Assembly: GCF_041583195.1 (NCBI RefSeq)
Contig: NZ_JBFHGL010000009.1
Span: 32,481 to 96,480, forward strand
Length of the DNA stretch: 64,000 nt
From: Sulfurimonas sp.
GTDB lineage: Bacteria > Campylobacterota > Campylobacteria > Campylobacterales > Sulfurimonadaceae
Direction of reading: 5' to 3'
Shown here piece after piece: positions 6,212 through 22,252 of the stretch (position 1 is the stretch's first letter; the number at the start of each line of letters is the position of its first letter). The notes beneath the pieces were generated by a model, which saw only the letters and a list, made by a program, of their open reading frames with translations, did no database searches and had not been told where the DNA came from. The position numbers and the translations under genes are program-made.

Positions 6212-7521
6212 AAATACACTTTATTGGAATAGGCGGTATTGGAATTTCTGGTCTGGCGCAATATATGCGTTTTCAAGGTCATGAAGTAAGTGGATCTGAT
6301 ATAAGTGATACAAAAATAACTAAAAAATTACGCTCACTTGGAATAGAAGTTACTGTTCCTCACTCTGCAGATGCGATTAAAGACCAAGACTTGGTTATCC
6401 ACTCTGCAATAATTCGTCCTGATAATCCAGAGATTATAGCTGCCAATAAAAAAGGCATTAAAGTTCTAGCACGTCGCGAAGCATTAAAAGATATACTAGC
6501 TGATAGAAAAGTATACTCTGTAGCAGGTGCTCACGGGAAAAGTACTACTACGGCAATTTTAGCTTCTATTATGTGTGGTTCATCTATCATCGGTGCTGAA
6601 TCAAAATCATTCGGATCAAATGTTCGTTATGAAGAAGATAACAATGTCATGATCTTTGAAGCTGATGAGAGTGACGGAAGCTTTTTAAACTCAAATCCTT
6701 ACTGTTCAATAGTTATAAACGCAGAACCTGAACACATGGAATATTATGACTATAACTATGACAGATTTTATGATTCATATAAAACATTTATAAAATCAGC
6801 AAAATGTCGTGTATTAAATGCAGAAGATCCTTTTTTAAGTTCACTTGTACATGAGATAGATGCTGCATGGTTATACCCGAGTAAAGATATAACAAATATA
6901 GAATATGTTTTAAAAGATGATGAACCACATACTCGTTTTACTCTTAAAAATCTAGGAACTTTTGAAGTTTGGGGCTTTGGAAAACATATAGCGCTAGATG
7001 CATCGTTAGCTATTTTAGCTGCACACGAATCTATGGATATTGAAGAGATAAGAGAGAACCTTTTAAAATTTAAAGGGATCAAAAAACGTTTTGACATTGT
7101 TGGAAGTGAACTTAACAGTGTAATTATTGATGATTACGGTCATCATCCAACTGAGATCAAAGCGACATTCAACTCTGTAAAAGAGTATGCTATGCTTAAA
7201 GGTTTTAGTAAAATCACAGCTATTTGGCAACCACATAAATACTCTCGTACTATCGATAATTTAGAAGAGTTTACAAAATGTTTTGAAGGTGCAGATGAGC
7301 TTATTATCCTACCTGTTTGGTCAGCGGGTGAAGCTACACGCGATATAGACTTTATAAAAGAATTTTCAAAGTACAACCTTACAATGGCCGACAATATAAA
7401 ACGTGCGAACAACAACATAACTATAGTTAAAGACAAAGAAGATTTAAAAACTCTAAATGACGGTCTAATAATAGGTTTTGGTGCAGGTGATATTACCTAC
7501 CAAATTAGAGGTGCAGGTTAA
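6208..7521 (+). CDS. murC: UDP-N-acetylmuramate--L-alanine ligase
   Basis: IHFIGIGGIGISGLA, GAHGKSTTT, EADESD, DDYGHHPTEI, WQPHKYSR. Confidence 0.95.
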   Translation: MKIHFIGIGGIGISGLAQYMRFQGHEVSGSDISDTKITKKLRSLGIEVTVPHSADAIKDQDLVIHSAIIRPDNPEIIAANKKGIKVLARREALKDILADRKVYSVAGAHGKSTTTAILASIMCGSSIIGAESKSFGSNVRYEEDNNVMIFEADESDGSFLNSNPYCSIVINAEPEHMEYYDYNYDRFYDSYKTFIKSAKCRVLNAEDPFLSSLVHEIDAAWLYPSKDITNIEYVLKDDEPHTRFTLKNLGTFEVWGFGKHIALDASLAILAAHESMDIEEIRENLLKFKGIKKRFDIVGSELNSVIIDDYGHHPTEIKATFNSVKEYAMLKGFSKITAIWQPHKYSRTIDNLEEFTKCFEGADELIILPVWSAGEATRDIDFIKEFSKYNLTMADNIKRANNNITIVKDKEDLKTLNDGLIIGFGAGDITYQIRGAG

Positions 7522-9119
7522 TTATAACCTTCTATATCCTCTAATAATTTGTCATTATCTAAATGACTTAACACCCTTGTATCAAAAGCTTCGAAACTTT
7601 CCCCTGCTTCTCTTAAACTTTGATACATACGCAAAATTTTTTTCACTTTATATTTAGCATCACTCAAAGGTACAGATTTATATATAACTCTTGCTTCTTT
7701 TGCTTCAAAAGAAGCTTTTCCACCTAAAAGTATATGCACACCATAACATGTTTCCCCATTTTCATCTTTGGCTTTACATCCTTCAAAACCAATATCTGCA
7801 ATACCGTGAATTCCACATCCTTTTGGGCATGCAGACCAGTACATTCTTACCTTTGCGTCCTCTAGTGGTACCTCCTTATTTAAAAATTCTGCCATCTCTA
7901 TAGCATCTGGTTTATTTGGAATTACACCAAAAGCACATGTTGCAGTACCTGCACAAGCCACCTGATTTACAAAGTAAGTATTCTGATAATTTGAATATTT
8001 TGCATATATATCACTTTGTTTTAAAGCATATATATACATATCGCTACAAACTATGTAAAAACTTTGCTCAACAGATAGTCGTATTTGAGCCCCCATAGGT
8101 TTTGAAAGTTCTGCAACTCTTATAAGATCAGATCCTGAGAAAATACCAGATGGAATACTAAATAAAAGTGCAGACTTATTATCTTTGAGTTTAGTAGCTC
8201 CACTTTGAGGAACTTTATGTTCGTTCTCTAATAATAATTCTCCTGAATTATCTAGTTTTGCTTTAGTTGTTTTAATTATTGCATCTCTAAATGCTTCCAT
8301 TCCAACAGCCTCGATCAAAAAGTGCAGGCGGTTTTTGTTTCTGTTATCTCTAAAACCAAACTCTCTGAATAGATTTATTACAGATATATACACCTCTTTT
8401 ACATCATCTACATTAACGAATAGACCACTATCTTCTGCCTGCATACCAACTCGACCACCAAGGTAAAAATTAAAACCTATTTTGTCATCTTTTTTAGCTA
8501 GTATAAAACAGCAATCATGTCCAAAAATATTACAGTCATTTGTTTTTGTACCAAGTATTGCGGTATTAAACTTACGAGGAAGTACACTATTCCATTCCTC
8601 TTTTTTCAAAAATATACTTTGCAGATCTTCTATAATTGGCATACATTCAATTATAGAATCTTCGCTTAGCCCATCAAAAGAAGATGTGACTATATTTCTA
8701 AAGTTATCAACCCCTGTTTGAAATGTTGTTATCCCTACAGAATCTAATTTAGTTAAAACAGTATATAGGTTCTCAAACTTTATGAATCTCAGTTCTATTT
8801 GCTGACGTGTAGTTATATCTATGTAATCTTCACCAAACTCTTTAGATATCTCACCTATCATTAGAGCTTGTTCAATATTTAGCTGACCAGCTGGAATACG
8901 AACACGTATCATAAACTTGCCATCACCCTTATCGAAGAGTCCAAAGCATTTTAAAAAGTACTTGCTATCTTCATCTTTTAGATTCTCATAACCAGACTCA
9001 CAAATAGTTTTTAAATTCTTATAAATACTAGTAGGTGTTTTTAACTTTTTAATCTGCTCAATTTTATTTTCTTTTTTACTTCTAGCTTGATAAGCATCAT
9101 GCAATTTTTGCATTTTCAT
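7518..9119 (-). CDS. nirA: Ferredoxin-nitrite reductase (siroheme, 4Fe-4S)
   Basis: MIRVRIPAG, DITTRQQIE, LPRKFNTA, ACAGTATCAFG and SACPKGCG cysteine motifs; in nitrate cluster. Confidence 0.88.
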   Translation of the reverse strand: MKMQKLHDAYQARSKKENKIEQIKKLKTPTSIYKNLKTICESGYENLKDEDSKYFLKCFGLFDKGDGKFMIRVRIPAGQLNIEQALMIGEISKEFGEDYIDITTRQQIELRFIKFENLYTVLTKLDSVGITTFQTGVDNFRNIVTSSFDGLSEDSIIECMPIIEDLQSIFLKKEEWNSVLPRKFNTAILGTKTNDCNIFGHDCCFILAKKDDKIGFNFYLGGRVGMQAEDSGLFVNVDDVKEVYISVINLFREFGFRDNRNKNRLHFLIEAVGMEAFRDAIIKTTKAKLDNSGELLLENEHKVPQSGATKLKDNKSALLFSIPSGIFSGSDLIRVAELSKPMGAQIRLSVEQSFYIVCSDMYIYALKQSDIYAKYSNYQNTYFVNQVACAGTATCAFGVIPNKPDAIEMAEFLNKEVPLEDAKVRMYWSACPKGCGIHGIADIGFEGCKAKDENGETCYGVHILLGGKASFEAKEARVIYKSVPLSDAKYKVKKILRMYQSLREAGESFEAFDTRVLSHLDNDKLLEDIEGYN

Positions 9120-10389
9120 TCTCCATCTTTATTTCATACTGAGGTAATACACTATGTAAATTAACTACATCACCAAAAACAATTATTCCAGGTCTTGGTG
9201 CATCTAATGCTGCTTTTGGTAAATCTTTTAGAGTAGTTATTACTCTACTCTGATTTGGTCTTGAAGCATTAGAAATAATAGCCGTAGGCATATTTTCATC
9301 TATTCCCTCTTTAAGTGCATATTCGACTATCTCATCTGCACGTGATAGTCCCATAAGAACTATAGTCGTGTGATTCTTTATCTTCAGCAGATCTATCCAC
9401 TGAGTATTAATTCTGTTTCCAGCCAAATGAGCAGATACAATTGATAAGTTTGTTGCATATCCTCTTGCTGTTGGAGCAATACCAGCACTAAGAGGACCAG
9501 CAATAGCTGAAGATATACCAGGTATGACATCTACACGAATCTGCTCTTTTATCAAAGCCTGAGCTTCCTCTGCCCCACGACCAAATATATATGGATCACC
9601 TGCTTTTAATCTAGCTACAGTTAGACCTTTAGATGCATAATCTATAAGCATCTCATTTATCTTCTCTTGTTTGACACTGTGTGAACCCTTTTCTTTACCC
9701 ACATTTATTTTCATCGTGTCTTTTGGGATTATCTCTTTTATCTCTTCGCTTATTAAGTGGTCAATAAATACAACATCAGCCTCTTGTATAGTTTTATATG
9801 CTTTAATAGTAAGCAGATCAACATCACCTGTACCGCAACCTACAAGTGTTACTTTTCCAAGCATTTTATTTGCTTTTTGTTTTGCTTTTTTTATATCTAT
9901 TATCCCGCTATCACGCTCGTTTTTGAGTTCAGTGTTTAGATTCTCAAGCTCTTTTGGAAGAACTCTTTTTATCTTATCTCTTACAGACTTAGCAAGTGTC
10001 GGGCTTGCACCTGCTGATGATACTGCAACCTTTAATGCACCGTATTCTATAAGTGCTGCAAAGAAAAAATCACAAACTTCTGGGACATCTACACAGTTAT
10101 ATAAAAAATTCTTTTTGTGTTTATGTGCCAAAAGTCTATTCATTACATCTTTTGAACCAGTAGCATCAACTACGATACTATATGATTCAATATCTTCTAT
10201 CTCAAAATATTTTTGAGTCTTTGAAACCTTAATATTTTCGAATTCTTTGATATATTCAGAAGATACACATGAAAACTTCACTGAGTTTCTCTGCATTACC
10301 TCTGCTTTTTGTAGTGCTACTTTTCCACCCCCAATTAAGATAATTTTTTGGTTTTTTAAAACGATTGGTAATGTAGTATACTTCATCAT
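9097..10389 (-). CDS. cysG: Siroheme synthase (precorrin-2 dehydrogenase + uroporphyrinogen-III methyltransferase)
   Basis: N-terminal IGGGKVA..K, SSAGASPTLA; C-terminal LVGCGTGDVDLLT, RLKAGDPYIFGRGAEE. Confidence 0.9.
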   Translation of the reverse strand: MMKYTTLPIVLKNQKIILIGGGKVALQKAEVMQRNSVKFSCVSSEYIKEFENIKVSKTQKYFEIEDIESYSIVVDATGSKDVMNRLLAHKHKKNFLYNCVDVPEVCDFFFAALIEYGALKVAVSSAGASPTLAKSVRDKIKRVLPKELENLNTELKNERDSGIIDIKKAKQKANKMLGKVTLVGCGTGDVDLLTIKAYKTIQEADVVFIDHLISEEIKEIIPKDTMKINVGKEKGSHSVKQEKINEMLIDYASKGLTVARLKAGDPYIFGRGAEEAQALIKEQIRVDVIPGISSAIAGPLSAGIAPTARGYATNLSIVSAHLAGNRINTQWIDLLKIKNHTTIVLMGLSRADEIVEYALKEGIDENMPTAIISNASRPNQSRVITTLKDLPKAALDAPRPGIIVFGDVVNLHSVLPQYEIKMENENAKIA

Positions 10390-10401: not shown

Positions 10402-11682
10402 TTAGATTCTTCCGCCAGCTTGAACACCCCAAGTAGTTCTCCATCTAGTCTTAACTAAAGAGATACCGCTAATAGCAACTATAACAACACCTGCAAATAT
10501 CATAAATCCAACTGTATAACCATCAAATGCACCTTTACTCCAACCAAGAGTTTTGATAAGGGCTGTACCACCAAGACCACCTGCTGCACCAATAATACCA
10601 GTCATAATACCAATGTCCTTACCAAAACGTTGAGGAACAAGTTGGAAAACTGCACCGTTTGCCATACCTAAGTTAGCCATGATTAAAAACAGAACTAGTA
10701 TAGCTACACCAAATGGAAGTGTTACAGAAGCATTTATTATTGCTAACACAGTTACAGTACCAAAGAAGATGTATAAAGATTTAACACCACCAAGTCTATC
10801 AGCAATCGCTCCACCAACCGGACGTAAAACAGCACCTGCAAATATACAAAGTGCTCCAAAGTAACCAGCTATAACTTTAACATTACTCTCATCTAAGATA
10901 TCTATACCAAATGCACTCATATCTGCTTGGTAAGTATTCATAAGATACACTTTCATATATCCTGCAAAACCAACGAATCCACCAAAACTTACAGCATAGA
11001 AAAGATTAAACCACCAAGTATCTTTATCTTTAAGAAGTTTTCCGTAATCTTTAAGTTTTTTAGGATTAGCAGTATAAACCTCAGCAGGAGCATTTTTAGC
11101 CAAGAATGCATAAGCAATCAATACAACTATAGCCATAGCTGCACCAACACCAAAAACAGATTCCCATCCCCATAACTCAGCGATTTTAGGAGCAAATAAG
11201 AAGTCAATTACAACACCTATGTTACCAGCCCCTGCTATACCTAAAACAACACCTTGTAGTTTAGGCGGATACCATTGACCAGCTTGAGGCAGAGCTACAG
11301 CAAAAGAAGCACCGGCAAAACCAAGTCCAAGAGCAACTAAAAGTAGTGTATCGTATGTGATGCTATTACCTTGTAAATAAGCAGTTAAAAGAGCAATAAT
11401 TACAACTGACTGAGCAAGCATCGCTGTAAGCTTAGCACCTAGTTTATCAACACCAAAACCAAGAAGTATTCTTAGAAGTGCACCTGAAAGTATAGGTAAA
11501 GATAGAAGTGTAGCTTTCTCACCTGCTGTCATAATATGTCCACCTAAAGCTAAAGCTTCAGATATTTCAGTACTTAATGGACCTAACATTGTCCAAACCA
11601 TAAAACTCATATCAAAATATAAAAAAGCCATGAACAATGTCGGTGTATGTCCTTGCCCTTTCAGATCTTTTAATCCTGCCAT
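10402..11682 (-). CDS. narK: Nitrate/nitrite MFS transporter (NarK/NasA family)
   Basis: Nitrate signature GFAGASFA and G.GNIG; LRPVGGAIADRLGG; GMANGAVFQLVPQRF; about 12 hydrophobic segments. Confidence 0.9.
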   Translation of the reverse strand: MAGLKDLKGQGHTPTLFMAFLYFDMSFMVWTMLGPLSTEISEALALGGHIMTAGEKATLLSLPILSGALLRILLGFGVDKLGAKLTAMLAQSVVIIALLTAYLQGNSITYDTLLLVALGLGFAGASFAVALPQAGQWYPPKLQGVVLGIAGAGNIGVVIDFLFAPKIAELWGWESVFGVGAAMAIVVLIAYAFLAKNAPAEVYTANPKKLKDYGKLLKDKDTWWFNLFYAVSFGGFVGFAGYMKVYLMNTYQADMSAFGIDILDESNVKVIAGYFGALCIFAGAVLRPVGGAIADRLGGVKSLYIFFGTVTVLAIINASVTLPFGVAILVLFLIMANLGMANGAVFQLVPQRFGKDIGIMTGIIGAAGGLGGTALIKTLGWSKGAFDGYTVGFMIFAGVVIVAISGISLVKTRWRTTWGVQAGGRI

Positions 11683-11765: not shown

Positions 11766-11790
11766 TTATTGTATAAATTATATACAATAA
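11766..11790. promoter_or_regulatory. Operator-like palindrome A (TTATTGTATA-AATTA-TATACAATAA)
   Basis: Perfect 10-bp arms with 5-bp spacer; core TGTATA-N5-TATACA repeated at 13521-13537. Confidence 0.65.
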
Positions 11791-11807: not shown

Positions 11808-13454
11808 CTATGACTTTAAATAGCCTATATATAATAGTAGTATCATATTTATAATTGCCATGCTTACAAAACCAACTCTGTAAAATGTTGTAGGGCTTCT
11901 CTGCATATAAGATATATTTTTTGCAAAATACGGTTCAACCTTACTTGGATTGTTTAGTTCAAAGTTCATCTCTGAATAATGCATATAGCGCTGTTCTTTA
12001 TCTATAGATATTGCGCGAAGTATTACACTGTCAAGCCAATCAGGAATATTTTTGTTATAAAAGCTAGGTTTTTTTGCATTTTTGAATATAGGAGATTGAA
12101 AAGGTTCTATCTCACCATATGGATATTTTCCGGTTAATGCATAATATAGTGTTACACCTATGGAAAATATTTCACTAGTCTCACTTATAGATTCGTTTTC
12201 AAACCTTTCAGGTGATAAAAAGCTAGGTGTACCTGCTCGTGAATTGTTTGAAAATATTTCTGTAATACTTCCAAAATCTATACTTTTATACTCAAGTGTA
12301 CCATCTTCATTTTTTAATACAATCACATTTGCAGGTTTTATATCTCCATGAACCAAATCATATTTTAAAAGATACTGTGACATATCTATAAGCATATTGG
12401 CAAGCTTTATACTCTCTTCAATAGATAGTTTTTTATCTTTTAAATACGTAGAGAGATCATCACCTTTAAAAAGTTGCATAACATAGTATCTATGAGTTCT
12501 GTTTTTTGGAATCACAGCCTTAGGAAAAAAGTCAGCTTTTAAACGCTTTGCATTCCAAGCCTCTTTTACGAACAGATCCAGTACACCCTCATCATCAATA
12601 CATTCACTTGGCGCATATTTTAATACATACTCTTTTGTCTTTTTTCTAACAAGCCAAGTCCTGTTGTTTTGAACTAGAGATCTTTTTAATTCATAACCAT
12701 CAATTACATCACATTCTTTTAGTGTCTGGTATATTAAAAGATCTTGATGTTTTAGTATATCTATATCATCTGCTTCTAATATATCTAGTACAATTGCAGT
12801 AGTATCGTCAGGTAGATCATTCTCAACTAATTTAGATGCTTTTTTAACAAGTGTATGTGCTCCAAGATTTATAGATGATTCTAATGCCTCATTATCCAAT
12901 ACATTATAAAGACCATCACTACAAAGTAATATCTTGTCACTTTTTTGCAGAGTATTTTCAAAATAATATGGTTCTACACTCTGTGATATACCTATGGCTT
13001 GAGTAAGTACATTTTCATATCCCTTTTCATTCATAGAATGGTCTTCTGATAGTTGGGTTAGTTTATTATCTCTTTGCAAATATACCCTGCTGTCTCCAAC
13101 ATTAGCTCCATATATGCGATTTCCTTCAATAGCAACTATTGTCAGAGTTGTAACAAGTTCACTGGATTCATAATTAATCTGTGATTCTTTATATAATATA
13201 TCATTTATAGATTTTATAAAAGTCAGTATACTTTTCTCAATAGTCCATGACTTTGGACGTATCTTAAAATTATTCATCATATAGTTTGTTACACGCTTAG
13301 CCGCTGCAGCACCTTCAGTTGCACTACCTACTCCATCACATACTATTGCTAAAGTTAGATTTCCAATAGTTTTAACATCGTAAAAATCATCACCAGTTAA
13401 CTCTTTCCCTTTTGCTAATGAAAATCCAGTTTTTCTAATTTGTTCTTTAGCCAT
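11808..13454 (-). CDS. Bifunctional PP2C phosphatase / Hanks-type Ser/Thr kinase with C-terminal membrane anchor
   Basis: PP2C motifs VCDGVG, NVGDSRVY, LCSDGL, DDTT; kinase motifs VLKY, HGDIKPAN, IDFG, GTPSFLSPE; ATG 13454 follows AAGG SD. Confidence 0.9.
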   Translation of the reverse strand: MAKEQIRKTGFSLAKGKELTGDDFYDVKTIGNLTLAIVCDGVGSATEGAAAAKRVTNYMMNNFKIRPKSWTIEKSILTFIKSINDILYKESQINYESSELVTTLTIVAIEGNRIYGANVGDSRVYLQRDNKLTQLSEDHSMNEKGYENVLTQAIGISQSVEPYYFENTLQKSDKILLCSDGLYNVLDNEALESSINLGAHTLVKKASKLVENDLPDDTTAIVLDILEADDIDILKHQDLLIYQTLKECDVIDGYELKRSLVQNNRTWLVRKKTKEYVLKYAPSECIDDEGVLDLFVKEAWNAKRLKADFFPKAVIPKNRTHRYYVMQLFKGDDLSTYLKDKKLSIEESIKLANMLIDMSQYLLKYDLVHGDIKPANVIVLKNEDGTLEYKSIDFGSITEIFSNNSRAGTPSFLSPERFENESISETSEIFSIGVTLYYALTGKYPYGEIEPFQSPIFKNAKKPSFYNKNIPDWLDSVILRAISIDKEQRYMHYSEMNFELNNPSKVEPYFAKNISYMQRSPTTFYRVGFVSMAIINMILLLYIGYLKS

Positions 13455-13520
13455 TAATAAACCTTGCACATGAAATATTTTCTTAATTTTACATTATATA
13501 GTATTTTTTAAGTCATAAAT

Positions 13521-13537
13521 TGTATAAATTCTATACA
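13521..13537. promoter_or_regulatory. Second copy of palindrome A (TGTATA-AATTC-TATACA)
   Basis: 16 of 17 positions identical to the core at 11770-11786; in the divergent kinase/narB intergenic region. Confidence 0.6.
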
Positions 13538-13602: not shown

Positions 13603-15582
13603 ATGATTAAGTCAGTGTGTGGATATTGTGGTGTTGGTTGTGGTATAGAATACGATGAACAAAAACTGATTGGAGATGTAACATACCCTACAAATGAAGG
13701 AAAACTCTGTTCAAAAGGTATTTCAGAGCTTATAAGTTTAGACACACCTTCAAGGCTTCTACGTCCAAAATTAAGAGAGAGTATTGATGAAGAGTATCGT
13801 ATATCAACATGGTATGAGACTATAAAAATCATAGCCGATAAAATAAAATCTACAGATAAAAATAAAATAGGCTTTTATCTCTCAGGTCAGCTTCTAACAG
13901 AAGATTACTATATTGCGAACAAACTCGGTAAAGGCTTTATAGGTACAAACAATGTAGACACAAACTCTCGTACATGTATGTCAAGTGCCGTAGTTGCATA
14001 TAAAAAAGCTATAGGTGCTGATTTTGTACCTCTAAGAATGAATGATATATTCAAGTCTGACTTATTGATTCTTGCAGGTGCAAATACAGCTGAGGCTCAT
14101 GTAGTTTTTCATAACCAGATAAAAAAAGCGAAAAAACAAGGTCTTAAAATAGTAGTAATTGACCCTCGCTATACTGAAACAGCAAAACTTGCTGATATTC
14201 ACTTAAGTATAAAAGCAGGAAGCGATATTGATTTTTTTAACCTAGTATCTAAAAAACTAATAGATGAAGAACTATACAATAAAGAATATGTTGAAGAAAA
14301 TGTAAATAACTTTGAACTTTTAAAAAATAAATTCAAGCGTGCTCCAGTTACGAAGATGCTAAAAAGAACGGGACTTTCGCAAGAGCAGTTTGATCAATTT
14401 TTTGATCTGTATATATCTAGTGAAAATATAATTACAGCTTGGACTATGGGGCTCAATCAATCTGTTCAAGGGGTTGATAAAAATTTAGCACTCTTAAACA
14501 CGCACCTACTAACAGGAAAAATATTTAAAGAAGGAAATGGTCCACTTAGTCTTACAGGTCAGCCAAATGCCATGGGTGGCCGTGAAGTCGGTGGACTATC
14601 TACCATGCTTGCAGTGCATCTCGGCTTTGATAAAGAGAGTATTGAAAAAGTATCTAAGTTTTGGAAGACAGACAAGATAGACAACAAACCTGGTCTTACT
14701 GCTACACAGATGATGGAAGCAAAACTGGACGTACTTATAATCGCTCATACTGACCCTGTATATCATCTACCAAACAGAAACAAGGTAGAAGATTTTATAA
14801 GCAAGATACCGTTTGTAGTTGAGATAAATGCATATGAAAACTCCGAGAGTTCAAAATATGCACACGTAAGACTTCCTGCTGCACCTTGGGGTGAGAAAGA
14901 AGGTACTCAGACAAATCTTGATAGAACTATTACAAAACAAGAGAGGCTTACTCGTCGTTCGATTGACTGTAAACCTGATTGGGAGATATTTCAACTTATA
15001 GCACAAGAGCTTGGTTTCAACGATGCATTTAACTTTAAAAATCCTAAAGAGATATTTCAAGAATATCAAGAGATGACGAAATTAAATGATCATATGGATA
15101 TACATAAACTTGACTATGATGACATCTCTTTTAAACCATTCATTTGGGGTGAAGATATAAAAACATATCTTACACCTGATAAAAAAGGAAATCTGTTTTA
15201 TGTGGAAAACAAACTCCTGAGTGAAAAAACAAACTTGGAATATCCATATATACTTTTAACAGGTAGGACACGTGATCAGTGGCATACAGGTACAAAAACA
15301 AATCTTCCTACAACTCTTTTAAAGTTCAAAGAATTGAACTTCTGTGAGATGAACCCAAATGATGCTAAACAACTCGGACTTGAAGATGGCGATGAAATTC
15401 AAGTTAGTTCAAGACGTGGTAGTATAAAGACAAAGGTACTTATTACAGAGGATATTTTAGAGAAAAATATCTTTATACCAATAAGTAATAGGGACATAAA
15501 CTATCTTACTAATGATCTTTTAGATAAAGATTCACTAGAGCCTGATTATAACCATTCTGCCGTAAAAATTGAAAAATTATAA
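13603..15582 (+). CDS. narB: Assimilatory nitrate reductase catalytic subunit (molybdopterin, 4Fe-4S)
   Basis: CGYCGVGC...LCSKG, YLSGQLLTEDYY, NSRTCMSSA, GQPNAMGGREVGG, TGRTRDQWHTGT. Confidence 0.9.
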   Translation: MIKSVCGYCGVGCGIEYDEQKLIGDVTYPTNEGKLCSKGISELISLDTPSRLLRPKLRESIDEEYRISTWYETIKIIADKIKSTDKNKIGFYLSGQLLTEDYYIANKLGKGFIGTNNVDTNSRTCMSSAVVAYKKAIGADFVPLRMNDIFKSDLLILAGANTAEAHVVFHNQIKKAKKQGLKIVVIDPRYTETAKLADIHLSIKAGSDIDFFNLVSKKLIDEELYNKEYVEENVNNFELLKNKFKRAPVTKMLKRTGLSQEQFDQFFDLYISSENIITAWTMGLNQSVQGVDKNLALLNTHLLTGKIFKEGNGPLSLTGQPNAMGGREVGGLSTMLAVHLGFDKESIEKVSKFWKTDKIDNKPGLTATQMMEAKLDVLIIAHTDPVYHLPNRNKVEDFISKIPFVVEINAYENSESSKYAHVRLPAAPWGEKEGTQTNLDRTITKQERLTRRSIDCKPDWEIFQLIAQELGFNDAFNFKNPKEIFQEYQEMTKLNDHMDIHKLDYDDISFKPFIWGEDIKTYLTPDKKGNLFYVENKLLSEKTNLEYPYILLTGRTRDQWHTGTKTNLPTTLLKFKELNFCEMNPNDAKQLGLEDGDEIQVSSRRGSIKTKVLITEDILEKNIFIPISNRDINYLTNDLLDKDSLEPDYNHSAVKIEKL

Positions 15583-15603: not shown

Positions 15604-16326
15604 ATGAAAGAAAAAAAGATAGTTATATTCTCTGGTGCCGGTATTAGTGCCGAGAGTGGAATCAAAACCTTCAGAGATGCAGACGGGCTGTGGGAAAACC
15701 ACAGTATTGAAGAGATCTGCAATCAATATACTTGGGAAAAAAACTACGAACAGGTTCATAAGTTTTATAACCAAAGAAGAGTTCAATTAGCTGATGTTGA
15801 ACCAAATCTAGCCCACGAAATAGTAGCCCAAATCAAAGAAAAATACCAAGACGACTGTATAGTGATCACACAAAATGTAGATGATATGTTTGAGCGTGCA
15901 GGATGCCGTGATGTTATCCATGTCCATGGAGAGCTTACCAAGATGCACTGCATGAGTTGTAACAATGTGTTTGATATTGGATACAAAGAGTTTACTATTG
16001 GTGAGCAGTGCCCTAAATGCGGAAATTCTCATATAAAACCTTATGTTGTTTTCTTTGGTGGTCAGGCTCCAAAATATATGGATATGTACTCAGCGTTTGA
16101 ATATCTGCAAAATGAAGATTCAATAGCAGTTGTTATAGGTACACTTGGCAATGTTATTCAGATAAGTGCAAATTTAGAACTTATGGATTGCAAAAAAATA
16201 CTAAATAACCTCGAAATATCACCATATATAGATGATTCTCAGTTTGATAGAGTATACTACGAAAATGCAACTTCGGCTATTGAAAAAATAGAAGCCGACA
16301 TTGAAGAGTTTTGGGAGATAGAATAA
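15604..16326 (+). CDS. cobB: NAD-dependent protein deacylase (sirtuin)
   Basis: SGAGISAESGIKTFRD, TQNVDD..ERAG, HVHG, two CxxC zinc motifs, PYVVFFG. Confidence 0.9.
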   Translation: MKEKKIVIFSGAGISAESGIKTFRDADGLWENHSIEEICNQYTWEKNYEQVHKFYNQRRVQLADVEPNLAHEIVAQIKEKYQDDCIVITQNVDDMFERAGCRDVIHVHGELTKMHCMSCNNVFDIGYKEFTIGEQCPKCGNSHIKPYVVFFGGQAPKYMDMYSAFEYLQNEDSIAVVIGTLGNVIQISANLELMDCKKILNNLEISPYIDDSQFDRVYYENATSAIEKIEADIEEFWEIE

Positions 16327-16327
16327 T

Positions 16328-17260
16328 ATGCAAATAATTTTAGTGCTAGTGGCGGCAATTTTAGGACTAACTTACGGTTACAATACAGAAGGTCTGCAGT
16401 TTACGTCTAAAATATGTTTATTTGCAGGTGTAACTCTAATCATGCCTACACTCTTTAATGTTAAACTAAAAGATATTAAACTGATTTTAACGCATAAAAA
16501 AATAATTTTTAAAAGTTTGGTAGTAAACTTTATAGCTCTTCCTGCACTTGCACTAGCAATAGGTCTTGCAACAAAAGACTTCGGTATAGCTGCTGGTGTC
16601 TTTGCACTCTCTGTACTAAGTGGTGGCGGTATGGTTATGTACTGGGTTAAAAAAACAGATTCAAATACCTCTTTAGGTTTCATACTTCTTTTTATAAACA
16701 TTATATTCATCTCTTTATCTCTTTTAATGCTTCACCTGTTTGCTGTATATACAGAGGGTTATTTTGGAGAGTTTTATGCAGATTCAAACAACTCTCTTAC
16801 AGGTTTTGCCAACGCTGTAATCTTGTACCTTATAGTTGTTCCGTTAATTCTGAGCAGAATTCTTATTTTTATGACCCCTGTAGTAAACTTTATAAATAAG
16901 TATCGCCCGATTATCAGCAATGTAAGTATATTTATAATTATTACGTTTCTTTTTGCATTGCAAAACTCTCAACTACTTTTTGAAGTTTATGACTTTGAAC
17001 CGGAACTTATAGCTATGTCATTTTATGCTATATCTGCATTTTACATAGGAAACTTTCTAATTGCTAAGTTTACTTTTGACATTTCAGACCCAGAGGAGCG
17101 TTCGGCATTTTGGTTTACGACAACACGCTATATAACTCTAGCACTTATCATTGCTAGTTTTTCTATAGCTTCATTTGGTGTAACTATGCTTATACCTATT
17201 ATGATGTCGTATCTTATACAGATACCTTTTGCAATATTTTATGCAAAATATGTAAAATAA
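16328..17260 (+). CDS. BASS/Acr3-superfamily secondary transporter
   Basis: About 10 hydrophobic segments; MPTLF, SLVVNFIALPALA and GMVMYW align with SBF/Acr3 patterns. Confidence 0.6.
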   Translation: MQIILVLVAAILGLTYGYNTEGLQFTSKICLFAGVTLIMPTLFNVKLKDIKLILTHKKIIFKSLVVNFIALPALALAIGLATKDFGIAAGVFALSVLSGGGMVMYWVKKTDSNTSLGFILLFINIIFISLSLLMLHLFAVYTEGYFGEFYADSNNSLTGFANAVILYLIVVPLILSRILIFMTPVVNFINKYRPIISNVSIFIIITFLFALQNSQLLFEVYDFEPELIAMSFYAISAFYIGNFLIAKFTFDISDPEERSAFWFTTTRYITLALIIASFSIASFGVTMLIPIMMSYLIQIPFAIFYAKYVK

Positions 17261-17631: not shown

Positions 17632-19814
17632 TCTCTCAGTTAGATTTAAACGAGCATATAGCTCAGTTTAAAAGCTTTTTCTCCCGCAATGATGATCTCT
17701 TTATAGAAGGTGATCAAGAACTACATTTTCGCTACATAAAAGCACTTGATAAGTTGGAGTTTAATGCTCCTCCAAAAGTGTCTGATTTTGCAAATATAAA
17801 ACAGCATCTTAAAAAACACGGTGTACTTAACTTTGAACAAATTTTTGAGATTGTAAAAGTTGTACGCTACTTTCGTTATTTTAAAAACCGTGATATAGAA
17901 GGAATTATAGGCGAATGGATGGAAAAGTTCGAATTTCCTGAACAGTTTTTAGAAGTTGAAAAATACTTTACAAATGATGGAAAGTTTGAAGAAAATTTAG
18001 ACCAAGAGCTTTTTTCTCTAAGCCAGAGAGTAAAAGAGCAAAAAAATAATATATCCGTTTCACTTAAACGTCTAGTCTCTTCATCTAAAGTTGCACCTTA
18101 TCTTATGGACACACAACTTCACTTTGTAAACAACGAAGACTGCCTTTTAGTTCGCGGTGGTTTTAACCATGTACTAAAAGGTGCAGTAGTTGGACGTAGT
18201 AGCAGTGGAGGTTTTTATGTATCACCTGATTCTATTTTAAAAGCCAAAGAGCAGATCCGCTATATAAACCAAGAGCGTGAAGCTATCTTTTACAGATATT
18301 CCCAAGAGTTCTCTACTAAACTAAGTGAGTTGCAGCCCTTTATCAACTTTATAGACAAAGAGTTTTCACGTTTTGATAATTATCAGGCAAGGGTTTTATT
18401 TGCAAAAAGTCAAAATCTCCAAATTGTAAAATCTCAAAAAAATTCAAATATAATTTTAAAAGATTTTATCCACCCTGCCCTGCATAATGCAAAACCTGTA
18501 AACGTAGACTTTAGTAAAAATGTTCTTATGATTACAGGTGTAAATGCCGGTGGTAAAACTATGCTTCTAAAATCTCTTTTATCTAGTGCATTTATGGCAA
18601 AGTATATGATCCCAATGAAGCTAAATGAGAATAAAAGCTCAATTGGAAATTTTAAGAAGATTCTCTCAATAATAGATGATCCGCAAAATGTTAAAAATGA
18701 CATCTCTACATTTGCTGGAAGAATGCAACAATTCTCTCAGATCTTCACTCAGCGTGATGCACTTGTCGGAGTAGATGAGATTGAGCTTGGAACAGACTCT
18801 GATGAAGCTGCAGCTTTATTTAAAGTTATACTTGATGAGCTTATAAAGAAAAATCAAAAGATTATAGTAACCACTCACCATAAGCGTCTTGCAGCACTTA
18901 TGGCTGATCGTGATGATGTTGAGCTTATGGCTGCCATATATGATGAAGATGCTAGAAAACCGACATATGAATTTATGCATGGGATCATCGGTAAGAGTTA
19001 TGCTTTTGAAACGGCAAGCCGTTACGGTATAGCACCGCATATAGTTAAAGAGGCTAAAAGCGTATACGGCGACAATAGTGAAAAACTAAACCTTCTTATA
19101 GAGCGTGGAAGCCAGCTTGAGCGTGAGTTAAAACAAAAACATATAAAAGTAGATGAGAAACTTGAAGAGCTTAATAAAAAAGAGCAAGAACTAAAAGCTT
19201 TAAGAGAAGATCTTTTTAAAGAGCTTGATGAACAAAAATCTGCACTTAAACGTAGTTATGAAGCTGCAATAAATGAAGCAAAATCAGCTGCACGTGCTGG
19301 TGATACACAGGCTATTCACCGTGCTATGAATAAAGCAAATAAAAATCTGCCTAAAGAGCAAAAAGAAGAGATAAAAAGAGATATAGTCTTTAGTGTAGGC
19401 GATCAGGTAAAATACCATTCCCAAAGCGGAACTATCAAAGCTCTTAAAGGCAATAAAGAAGCCATTGTAGAAGTAAACGGCATGACTGTGCGCGTTAAGA
19501 CAAAACAACTCAAACCGACACAAATAATAAAACAAAAACCTCAATCAGATGTAAAAGTGCAAGTTGAGAAAAAAGCTGGTCTTAAATGTGACTTGCACGG
19601 TATGCGTGCAGATGAGGCATGTGAGACACTGGATAAGTTTTTATCCGATGCTCTTATGAACGGCTGGGATGAAGTTATAGTTTATCACGGTATTGGAACA
19701 GGTAAGCTGTCATATGCAGTTAAAAACTTCCTAACAGCTCATCCAAGGGTCAAAAGCTTTACTGACGCACCACCTCATCTTGGCGGTTTTGGAGCTAAGA
19801 TAGTTTACCTTTAA
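17622..19814 (+). CDS. mutS2: Endonuclease MutS2
   Basis: ITGVNAGGKT Walker A, DISTFAGRM, VDEIELGTD, TTHHK, C-terminal Smr domain DLHGMR...HGIGTGKL. Confidence 0.93.
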   Translation: MQIISQLDLNEHIAQFKSFFSRNDDLFIEGDQELHFRYIKALDKLEFNAPPKVSDFANIKQHLKKHGVLNFEQIFEIVKVVRYFRYFKNRDIEGIIGEWMEKFEFPEQFLEVEKYFTNDGKFEENLDQELFSLSQRVKEQKNNISVSLKRLVSSSKVAPYLMDTQLHFVNNEDCLLVRGGFNHVLKGAVVGRSSSGGFYVSPDSILKAKEQIRYINQEREAIFYRYSQEFSTKLSELQPFINFIDKEFSRFDNYQARVLFAKSQNLQIVKSQKNSNIILKDFIHPALHNAKPVNVDFSKNVLMITGVNAGGKTMLLKSLLSSAFMAKYMIPMKLNENKSSIGNFKKILSIIDDPQNVKNDISTFAGRMQQFSQIFTQRDALVGVDEIELGTDSDEAAALFKVILDELIKKNQKIIVTTHHKRLAALMADRDDVELMAAIYDEDARKPTYEFMHGIIGKSYAFETASRYGIAPHIVKEAKSVYGDNSEKLNLLIERGSQLERELKQKHIKVDEKLEELNKKEQELKALREDLFKELDEQKSALKRSYEAAINEAKSAARAGDTQAIHRAMNKANKNLPKEQKEEIKRDIVFSVGDQVKYHSQSGTIKALKGNKEAIVEVNGMTVRVKTKQLKPTQIIKQKPQSDVKVQVEKKAGLKCDLHGMRADEACETLDKFLSDALMNGWDEVIVYHGIGTGKLSYAVKNFLTAHPRVKSFTDAPPHLGGFGAKIVYL

Positions 19815-22252
19815 CTATCTATTTTACAAGCTAAAAACCTATGAAGAATTTTTACAAAAGTTTCATATTCAATAGGTTTGGCAATAAAATCATCCATCCC
19901 TGCATTTATAAATCTGTCTTTGTCTTCTGAAAGAGCATTTGCCGTTAGAGCAACAATAGGTGTAGGGCTTAGTGACTTTTCTTTCTCTATCTCACGTATA
20001 ACTTTTGTAGCTTCTATACCGTTCATCTTAGGCATGTTTTCATCCATAAGAATTAAGTCATACTTTTTGTCATTAAACATATTAACACCTTCTAAACCAT
20101 TGTTAGCAAGGTCCGCTTGTAAATCAACTTTGTCTAAAAGAAGATTTACAAGTATTTGATTTGTTTCATTATCTTCAACAAGTAAAACGTTTCCGCTAAG
20201 CTTATTATGCATATACAGTTTAGCTAAAGCCTCTTTTGAATGTTCGTGTTCAGCATCTTCATCAGCTTCAACTAAAGGCAGATAAAAACAAAATTCACTA
20301 CCTTTTCCAAGTTCACTTTGAACATCTATAGTTCCATTCATTGCTTTTATAAGTGTTGCAGATATAGAAAGACCTAAACCAGTTCCACCATACTTTCTAG
20401 TAGTTGAGCTATCAGCTTGAGTGAACGCTTCAAAAATTTTATCAAGGTTTTTTTTGTCTATTCCTGAGCCTGTATCTTTAACACAAAAGATCAACACATC
20501 TCTTTGCTTATCATAATGGGTACTCATAGTAATTTTACCGCCTTGATCGGTAAACTTTATGGCATTACTCAAAAAGTTCGAAGCTATCTGTTTTACGCGT
20601 ACAATATCACCTACGAAAAACCTTGGAAGGTTATCGTCAAAATTTATCTTTAACTCTATACCTTTCTCTTTTGCACGTTCATAAAATAAAAGCCCTATCT
20701 CTTTAAAAGGTTTTTTGGTAGCAAATTTTCTTTTCTCAAATGTCATTTTTCCAGATTCTATTTTGGAAAAGTCGAGTATATCGTTTATAACTGTAAGTAA
20801 AGTATTACCTGAGTTTTTGATGATGCTGAAGTATTTTTGCCTTTGCTTGTCTTTCTCATCACCTCTTAAAATATCTACAAAGCCTAAAATAGCATTTAAT
20901 GGTGTTCTTATCTCATGAGACATACTGGCTAAGAAGTCAGACTTTACTTTAGATGCAGTTTGTAGTTCTTTTACTTTATTTTGCAACTCTTTTGTTTTTA
21001 TAGCTACTAATGATTCAAGATTTTCATTTGTCTCTTTTAACTCGTGTGTCGTTTGATCTATTAAATGTGAGAGTGCTTTGTTTGTTGCATTCATACTCTT
21101 AATTTTCGAATCTATCTCTGCATCTTCTTCATGTTGATATTTACTTACATCATCACTCTCACTTAAAGATATTACAGTCATAGTTTGATTTAGAAGTTCT
21201 GGTTCATCAGACTTAAAAAACTCACCGTATGTAAAAAAACCACTGCTTGGCGCTACTTTTGATAGAGGTTCTAACTCTACAGATATGGCATCTTCTAAAA
21301 ACCTTCTTCTTGCCATACAAGAGTATATAAATATTGACTCAACAGGTGTATCATGAAACTCTTTACCAATTTGTATAGACTCTGATAAAATTGCATTTGC
21401 ATTACCAAATCCAAAATGTACCCTATCTCCAATATGCAAATTCCCTGCAAAAACCAAAGAGCCGTCATCGCCTTTTCCAAGAACAGCACGTGCTACTTTT
21501 ACACCGTCTTTATTTAAAATTAATGGAAATTCAATTCCAATAGCAGGTAAACTTTTTGCAGCCTCTTCACCTAAATATTTTCTGTAAGTATCTACTGCAC
21601 TTACACCATTAATCTCATATACTCTGTTATCTTCAACTTTAGTAACGATAAGCTCTTTACCGATCTCCTGCCAAAAAAAGCTGTATGCATTTTTTACATT
21701 TAGGTTTTTGGAGTTTATCGATACACCGACTGCTCCGTTAGAGATTACTTTATCGTTTGAGAATACATAAGTATTTTTAAATCTGGCACCGTCACCCGCC
21801 ATACCGCCTGCAAGCATAATATCTTTACTTACACTGCTAACCCCGTCTAAAAAATCTTCACCGTTAATACTCAAACCGTCGGCAAAAAGAATTATAAGTT
21901 TTGTGTTTGTATGTATTACATCTTTTGCTAACTTTTCTCCACACTCGAAACTGTTGCCATCATTTTCGACTGCAGATATGTTTAAAGTGCTATGTTTAAA
22001 TTCTGTTATGCTTATAACAATTTTATCAGTACTTACGTTTTTTCCTAAAATTTCACCGTCTGTAGTCGCACCGATTATTTTAGCGTTTGGGAGTAGTTTT
22101 AATATATCTCTTGTAAGTAGTTGCAAAGTTTTCTCATCGCATACAGAGCTGAAAACCTGTACTAGAATATCTTTGTGTTGATCAATTGAGTTTTTTGATA
22201 TGAAATTATCTAAATCATCAATATCTTTATAATAGGTATTAAAAGTTCTCAA
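19811..22252 (-). CDS. Cytoplasmic FIST-domain hybrid histidine kinase (FIST-HisKA-HATPase-REC)
   Basis: FIST motifs LAGGMAGD, YSCMARR, GFFTYGE; SHEIRTPLN; NFLSNAIKFT; YGGTGLGL; receiver LVEDN..LMDENMP..AKP; no TM segment. Confidence 0.92.
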   Translation of the reverse strand: MRTFNTYYKDIDDLDNFISKNSIDQHKDILVQVFSSVCDEKTLQLLTRDILKLLPNAKIIGATTDGEILGKNVSTDKIVISITEFKHSTLNISAVENDGNSFECGEKLAKDVIHTNTKLIILFADGLSINGEDFLDGVSSVSKDIMLAGGMAGDGARFKNTYVFSNDKVISNGAVGVSINSKNLNVKNAYSFFWQEIGKELIVTKVEDNRVYEINGVSAVDTYRKYLGEEAAKSLPAIGIEFPLILNKDGVKVARAVLGKGDDGSLVFAGNLHIGDRVHFGFGNANAILSESIQIGKEFHDTPVESIFIYSCMARRRFLEDAISVELEPLSKVAPSSGFFTYGEFFKSDEPELLNQTMTVISLSESDDVSKYQHEEDAEIDSKIKSMNATNKALSHLIDQTTHELKETNENLESLVAIKTKELQNKVKELQTASKVKSDFLASMSHEIRTPLNAILGFVDILRGDEKDKQRQKYFSIIKNSGNTLLTVINDILDFSKIESGKMTFEKRKFATKKPFKEIGLLFYERAKEKGIELKINFDDNLPRFFVGDIVRVKQIASNFLSNAIKFTDQGGKITMSTHYDKQRDVLIFCVKDTGSGIDKKNLDKIFEAFTQADSSTTRKYGGTGLGLSISATLIKAMNGTIDVQSELGKGSEFCFYLPLVEADEDAEHEHSKEALAKLYMHNKLSGNVLLVEDNETNQILVNLLLDKVDLQADLANNGLEGVNMFNDKKYDLILMDENMPKMNGIEATKVIREIEKEKSLSPTPIVALTANALSEDKDRFINAGMDDFIAKPIEYETFVKILHRFLACKIDS

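Follow-up and report, generated by a model that had tools for sequence, protein, structure and literature searches.

The DNA analysed here, which we refer to as the window, is a 64,000-nucleotide stretch of a Sulfurimonas sp. contig (NZ_JBFHGL010000009.1; 33% G+C) that carries nitrate-assimilation genes and, among them, a gene encoding a PP2C-type protein phosphatase fused to a Hanks-type Ser/Thr kinase. The open reading frame (11808..13469, minus strand) has an in-frame ATG at 13454, and the resulting 548-residue protein fits more than 100 homologues of 545–548 residues in both length and N-terminal alignment. The gene lies between narK, on the same strand, and a divergent nasA/narB-type nitrate reductase gene (Table 1), which is where an original prediction, made by a model from the sequence alone, had placed it. 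That prediction had described the product as a membrane-anchored phosphatase–kinase fusion, and we found each part of the description to be right. Pfam detects PP2C_2 at residues 24–201 (E 9e-18) and Pkinase at residues 322–495 (E 3e-21, from profile position 68 onward only), and residues 524–546 form the sole hydrophobic segment of the chain (Kyte-Doolittle 2.0), with two residues after it. An AlphaFold2 model computed from a 50-sequence alignment (mean predicted local distance difference test score 93.8, predicted template modelling score 0.70) shows both domains well folded and a helix at the end of the chain (residues 521–547). The best Protein Data Bank (PDB) matches to the kinase half are PknB/Stk1-type kinases. 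The protein contains no sensor domain. Because it has a single C-terminal transmembrane helix and no signal peptide, it is predicted to be a tail-anchored protein with both catalytic domains in the cytoplasm.

Table 1. Features of the kinase-phosphatase gene and the surrounding nitrate locus, in window coordinates.
Feature	Position	Strand	Remarks
Kinase-phosphatase coding sequence	11808..13454	-	548 residues; stop codon 11808-11810
PP2C (PPM) phosphatase domain	12780..13439	-	residues ~6-225
Hanks-type kinase domain	11940..12707	-	residues ~250-505; no Gly-rich loop; non-RD
C-terminal membrane anchor	11817..11885	-	residues 524-546, after conserved juxtamembrane motif (family consensus PL.ERNP..FW)
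narK-type nitrate/nitrite MFS transporter gene	10402..11682	-	TIGR00886 E 2.7e-68; 3' of kinase gene; inferred partner
Codons for NarK 16-residue C-tail, KTRWRTTWGVQAGGRI	10405..10452	-	T416/T417 (10432-10437), candidate phospho-acceptors
cysG (sirohaem synthase)	9097-10389	-	downstream of narK
nirA (ferredoxin-nitrite reductase)	7518-9119	-	downstream of narK
Assimilatory nitrate reductase gene, nasA/narB-type molybdoenzyme	13603..15582	+	divergent; Pfam Molybdopterin, Molydop_binding, Fe4S4; NCBIfam NasC/NasA matches
Palindrome TGTATA-N5-TATACA, copy 1, TGTATAAATTATATACA	11770..11786	.	in 125-bp kinase-narK spacer, 88 bp before narK start
Palindrome TGTATA-N5-TATACA, copy 2, TGTATAAATTCTATACA	13521..13537	.	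centre of 148-bp divergent region; 67 bp from kinase ATG, 66 bp from nasA ATG

Motif conservation was scored on a 50-sequence alignment of the family whose members are 22–54% identical to the window protein. The phosphatase half contains CDGVGS (D40, G41), VGDSR (G120, D121), SDGL (D180, G181) and DDTT (D216); the columns of D23, D40-G41, G120-D121 and D180-G181 are invariant and that of D216 is at least 90% conserved, and the metal-binding aspartates D23, D40, D121, D180 and D216 are all present. The kinase half contains Lys279 within YVLKY, HGDIKPAN (369–376), DFG (393–395) and SPE (414–416), with E298, H369, D371, N376 and E416 invariant and K279, K373, D393 and G395 at least 90% conserved. 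The window protein thus keeps every conserved catalytic column of the alignment. What it does not have is the Gly-rich loop GxGxxG of subdomain I, the aligned segment SLVQNNRTWL being devoid of glycine, and this missing loop explains the late start, at profile position 68, of the Pfam kinase match. The statement in the original prediction that both motif sets are intact therefore stands for every motif it named, but the kinase set as a whole is not fully canonical. The HGD of the catalytic loop makes the protein a non-RD kinase, and it is characteristic of the NarK-linked clade of Campylobacterota, where 27 of 30 members have HGD and one has HAD (two gave no pattern match); the other clades of the family have HQD or HRD.

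The missing loop raises the question of whether the kinase half can bind or use ATP at all, or whether the protein is a tethered PP2C phosphatase with a pseudokinase as its regulatory or docking module. The family-wide degeneracy of the loop and the late start of the Pfam match are what such a protein would be expected to have. However, Lys279, Glu298, Asp371, Asn376, Asp393 and Glu416 are invariant or at least 90% conserved at 22–54% identity, and a catalytic set conserved across such divergent sequences is the pattern typical of active kinases rather than of pseudokinases. A pseudokinase would also leave a lone phosphatase with no Hanks-type kinase to oppose in this genome (other kinds of kinase are not excluded), and we consider this reading very improbable.

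The genome to which the window belongs (2.38 Mb, 99.9% complete; closest protein relatives named Sulfurimonas) was searched as a whole. It yielded one Pkinase match above the Pfam cut-off and one PP2C_2 match, and both are this gene; the genome contains no FHA domain, and of the family described below only the NarK-linked copy is present. Given that the cell has a single Hanks-type kinase and a single PP2C phosphatase, and that the two are one protein, a local and dedicated role is likely.

The kinase-phosphatase is an ordinary member of a known, widespread and annotated family and is not new. NCBI names the family 'bifunctional protein-serine/threonine kinase/phosphatase'; in the source records its members also go by 'protein kinase'. 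An exhaustive profile-free search returned 214 cluster representatives at E < 1e-30, most of them 540–600 residues long, and dozens of 50%-identity cluster representatives align in a single stretch over residues ~34–543. A hydrophobic C-terminus is found in 125 of 129 family members. The window protein has the features of the family throughout (N-terminal PP2C, central Hanks-type kinase, one C-terminal transmembrane helix, a length of ~540–600 residues), and a FastTree phylogeny places it inside the NarK-linked part of the family. This locus adds little beyond another family member with a reshuffled gene order. A search of genome contigs with the generic kinase pattern HRDxKPxN gave at least 80 loci, mostly unrelated kinases, from which we used L002–L006. 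The orthologue of Pseudomonas vlassakiae lies in the order nasS-nasT-narK-kinase-oprF, and in Colwellia the order is nirB-nirD-MFS-kinase with nasA divergent. A defence-system kinase was considered and set aside, as the NCBIfam matches to MADS6 and BREX PglW score far under their cut-offs and the gene lies in a nitrogen-assimilation context.

We determined what the family travels with in two samples of 301 genomes each, one of Campylobacterota and one of Pseudomonadota. At E <= 1e-148 the kinase-phosphatase has an orthologue in 35 of the Campylobacterota genomes, and the same 35 genomes contain an intact NarK orthologue (at least 70% identity) on the same contig, always within 10 kb and mostly directly adjacent; in one further genome the contig ends inside narK. 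The window-type NasA reductase is distributed differently. It has orthologues in 17 Campylobacterota genomes, eight of which are among the 35 with the kinase, while nine have no NarK-clade kinase, and we rejected it as a conserved partner on these counts. With NarK present in 35/35 and NasA in only 8/35, the kinase tracks the transporter and not the reductase. In one genome of the same genus (G262), narK is a pseudogene interrupted by four in-frame stops (G262:C54:8880-10156) beside an intact nasA, and the kinase-phosphatase gene is absent from the entire genome, which is consistent with a joint loss of transporter and kinase. Four other Campylobacterota genomes (G232, G049, G268 and G296) encode a NasA-type orthologue of 53–74% identity and have neither a NarK orthologue nor the kinase-phosphatase; they must take up nitrate in some other way.

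The same association extends to Pseudomonadota, where the family is found in 82 of the 301 genomes (90 loci fetched, neighbours scored by tblastn). When neighbours within 1.5 kb are counted over 129 family loci, a NarK-type gene is found at 80, and at 70 of them it lies directly upstream on the same strand with a median gap of ~56 bp. A further kind of partner is a transporter gene of the FNT family (PF01226, NirC-like), which neighbours the kinase at 28 loci, upstream on the same strand at 26, and often together with cyanase and nirB. Such FNT-(cyanase)-kinase-nirB arrangements occur in Campylobacterota (L111–L113; G166, G275 and G159) and at Pseudomonadota loci such as L161, L165, L168 and L176. 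Within the NarK-linked proteins, those linked to FNT are nested as a single clade (29 rows, support 100), and in nine genomes a NarK-linked copy coexists with an FNT-linked one. In sum, a NarK or FNT gene is within 1.5 kb at 108 of 129 loci; six of the remaining 21 are Campylobacterota loci with narK 2–9 kb away, and four make up a separate clade that adjoins phosphofructokinase and pyrophosphatase genes (L201–L204, below). This neighbour pattern is what a transporter-specific partner would be expected to look like.

These data also bear on whether the enzyme might instead phosphorylate the reductases of the cluster, NasA/NarB or NirA, an idea to which the gene order lends some appeal. In the window the gene sits between narK-cysG-nirA and the divergent nasA, and at many Pseudomonadota loci nirB and nasA come after the kinase gene. 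The distribution of NasA given above argues against control of the reductases, as do transporter–kinase pairs found away from any reductase gene (L002, nasS-nasT-narK-kinase-oprF; L111, GGDEF-FNT-kinase-GGDEF); moreover, soluble reductases need no membrane-anchored regulator. We judge control of the reductases to be very unlikely, if slightly less so than a dead kinase half. The original prediction had proposed that Ser/Thr phosphorylation switches either NarK or the reductases. The first half of that proposal is backed by the 35/35 co-occurrence and by the sister clade tied to FNT, and the second half is left unsupported by a reductase present in 8/35.

The palindromes named as shared operator boxes in the original prediction are likewise there, as exact copies of TGTATA-N5-TATACA on either side of the kinase gene (Table 1). 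With at most one mismatch allowed, the window contains three matches against 0.37 expected, a number reached by none of 100 shuffles. The same palindrome is found at other Campylobacterota loci, upstream of narK and nirA (L095), of an FNT gene (L111), and of nirB and FNT (L112/L113), which suggests a putative nitrogen-assimilation operator at the level of the phylum. The spacer between the kinase gene and narK also contains promoter-like hexamers (CTGACA-17-TAAAAT). The arrangement in the window is unusual: at no other of the 129 family loci does narK follow the kinase gene on the same strand. Because the 125-bp spacer carries a second operator copy, the kinase gene and narK each own a palindrome here, and the tight spacing of most other loci is lost; gene order around the pair is reshuffled in close relatives as well. 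Behind nasA, at gaps of 21 bp and 1 bp, follow a Sir2-family deacylase gene (15604-16326) and a gene of the SBF (bile acid:sodium symporter) family (16328-17260), and both look co-transcribed with the nitrate reductase gene. About 4 kb off the nitrate cluster is a gene for a hybrid histidine kinase (19811-22252, minus strand) with N-terminal FIST and FIST_C, HisKA, HATPase and receiver domains; FIST domains are proposed small-ligand sensors.

The cytoplasmic C-terminus of NarK offers a candidate target site. MFS transporters have cytoplasmic termini, as in the NarK and NarU structures, and in the window NarK the last predicted transmembrane segment (394–410) is followed by a 16-residue cytoplasmic tail that contains RWRTTWG. 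Most kinase-linked NarKs have a tail of one of two types: type A, W-(RTT or TRT)-W-G/A, in 47 of 80, and type B, EPKG...DG[TS].E.I, in 30 of 80, with three showing no clear tail motif. In the linked NarKs of type A the two threonines are invariant. The FNT partners (n=28) have a tail of their own, TH[VI][KR]T.PKR. Among NarKs from kinase-free genomes, 33 of 38 are without any such motif, and the Pseudomonas-type NarK has as its nearest kinase-free relatives proteins whose tails, RWRLHWA and RWRARW, have lost the two threonines. The association between tail and kinase is suggestive, not strict, and rests on about three independent lineages.

Taken together, these observations lead us to propose that the C-terminal helix keeps the enzyme at the membrane, on its cytoplasmic side, where it works as the dedicated partner of the NarK encoded by the adjacent gene. 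The kinase half would phosphorylate the transporter, most plausibly at T416/T417 in the membrane-proximal tail RWRTTWG, and the fused PP2C half would remove the phosphate. The outcome would be a fast and reversible post-translational control of nitrate uptake, layered on top of the transcriptional control that the TGTATA-N5-TATACA operator may provide. Comparative genomics supports the putative transporter switch well; the activity of the enzyme, the roles of NarK as substrate and of the tail as site, and the choice of the active phosphorylation state are inferred. We put the chances that the enzyme acts on NarK to control nitrate uptake at about even, and regard the tail threonines as a tentative choice of site, possible but not probable.

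Several observations weigh against this proposal. Kinase activity is not assured, because the Gly-rich ATP-binding loop is missing throughout the family. Genomic adjacency is evidence of functional coupling and not of substrate identity, and a natural NarK–kinase fusion was not found among proteins of 960–2740 residues, although this is weak evidence. A distinct, strongly supported clade in Pseudomonadota (L201–L204; G431, G384, G566 and G376) lies beside genes for a pyrophosphate (PPi)-dependent phosphofructokinase and a pyrophosphatase, with no transporter; three of the four genomes encode it as a second copy in addition to a member of the FNT clade. As for the tail, WRTTWG is kept in two kinase-free genomes, G313 and G404 (no kinase at E 1e-10). 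We therefore rejected a strict link between RWRTTWG and the kinase as a rule, and the motif could be a structural element or a docking site instead of a phospho-acceptor. The tail comparison is also weak in itself, as the kinase-free relatives come from only about three lineages. Finally, we found no functional study of PA1782/ppkB-type proteins in the literature, where they are mentioned in gene lists only.

Some of the same observations would fit an arrangement in which the transporter is the sensor and not the substrate. The enzyme might read the flux or conformation of the adjacent transporter through its anchor and juxtamembrane motif and phosphorylate another target, such as the putative regulator binding TGTATA-N5-TATACA, a PII-type protein or a metabolic enzyme. 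Such transceptor signalling would account for the strict coupling to a transporter of an enzyme that itself lacks a sensor domain, and for the conservation of the juxtamembrane motif. It would agree with a kinase gene that in the window has its own operator copy and no translational coupling to narK, and with a NarK tail motif that persists in some kinase-free genomes; the clade beside the pfk/ppa genes hints at soluble targets. On the other side, the loci examined contain no candidate regulator gene whose occurrence follows that of the kinase, the genome is without an FHA reader domain, and a role as substrates is the simpler explanation for threonine tails conserved in transporters of two unrelated folds. 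The Pseudomonas regulators NasS and NasT, moreover, work without phosphorylation by such a kinase. We think a transceptor rather unlikely and retain direct control of NarK as our preferred reading.

Control of nitrate uptake after translation is well documented in plants and yeast, and to our knowledge it has no known molecular basis in bacteria. The family described here occurs in roughly one in four of the Pseudomonadota sampled and in the majority of Campylobacterota that assimilate nitrate, and it offers a simple and genetically tractable candidate, with one gene, one adjoining transporter and two candidate threonines. If the proposal is true, it could explain the rapid inhibition of bacterial nitrate uptake by ammonium, and the enzyme would be the sole Ser/Thr phospho-signalling system of the Sulfurimonas cell. 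Since it is the only Hanks-type kinase in the cell of a chemolithoautotroph such as Sulfurimonas, any Ser/Thr phosphorylation detected there could be directly assigned to it.

Among known systems, the closest are PA1782 and ppkB of Pseudomonas. The original prediction had mentioned similar fusions beside nitrate transporter genes in Pseudomonas, and this proved accurate: the order nasS-nasT-narK-kinase is found at L002, the genome paper of Pseudomonas sp. UW4 describes ppkB within nasST-nasA-ppkB-nasDEC-cobA and speculates on phosphorylation of the transporter (PMC3596284), and PMC8560001 lists PA1782 of P. aeruginosa as a third Ser/Thr kinase that has not been studied. The window protein shares with them the order of PP2C, kinase and C-terminal transmembrane helix in ~550 residues, the same conserved catalytic residues, and a gene that, within a nitrate-assimilation cluster, adjoins the one for the NarK-type transporter. 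Over its residues 38–548 it aligns with the orthologue of P. vlassakiae (27% identity), a protein to which the family profile gives a score of ~640 bits. It differs in that the Campylobacterota clade sits on a long branch and has HGD where the others have HRD or HQD in the catalytic loop, that nasS and nasT are not found beside the pair in the Campylobacterota loci examined, and that in the window the order is reversed, with the kinase before narK and a separate operator-bearing spacer between them.

A second comparison is with the Stk1/PknB–Stp1 pairs of Firmicutes and Actinobacteria, which provide the best solved-structure and NCBIfam matches (kinase, 4eqm/9ymt, E 1e-20; PP2C, 6ihl-type 'phosphorylated protein phosphatase', E ~1e-13) and in which a kinase and its opposing PP2C phosphatase are also encoded together. 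In those pairs, however, the two are separate proteins, the kinase being a receptor whose PASTA domains are extracellular and follow a central transmembrane helix, whereas here they are fused, with no extracytoplasmic domain and only two residues past the helix. Assignment to the PASTA kinase or Stp1 equivalogs (NF033483 and NF033484) was rejected, the scores being 102 against a cut-off of 450 bits and 130 against 230 bits, respectively. A further comparison is with the FNT-linked sister clade, which has the same architecture at 26–31% identity, follows its own transporter gene on the same strand (26/28) and in Campylobacterota has the same palindromic operator; it differs in being a separate clade whose partner is a channel of the formate/nitrite transporter family.

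The plant nitrate transporter NRT2.1 belongs to the NNP/NarK transporter family. In Arabidopsis, phosphorylation of its C-terminal Ser501 turns uptake off and the PP2C phosphatase CEPH turns it on again (PMC10944928). The likeness lies in a NarK-family transporter, a C-terminal phosphosite and a PP2C eraser, and it is an analogy of mechanism, not of family membership. In the plant, hormones control a soluble kinase and a soluble phosphatase that are distinct proteins, whereas the bacterial activities reside in one membrane-tethered chain encoded beside the transporter, and the tail sequences are unrelated. It is conceivable, although we would not call it likely, that NarK (MFS) and the pentameric FNT/NirC, two unrelated folds, are each served by their own tail-anchored enzyme that writes and erases phosphate on C-tail threonines, as a separately evolved counterpart of NRT2.1 Ser501 and CEPH.

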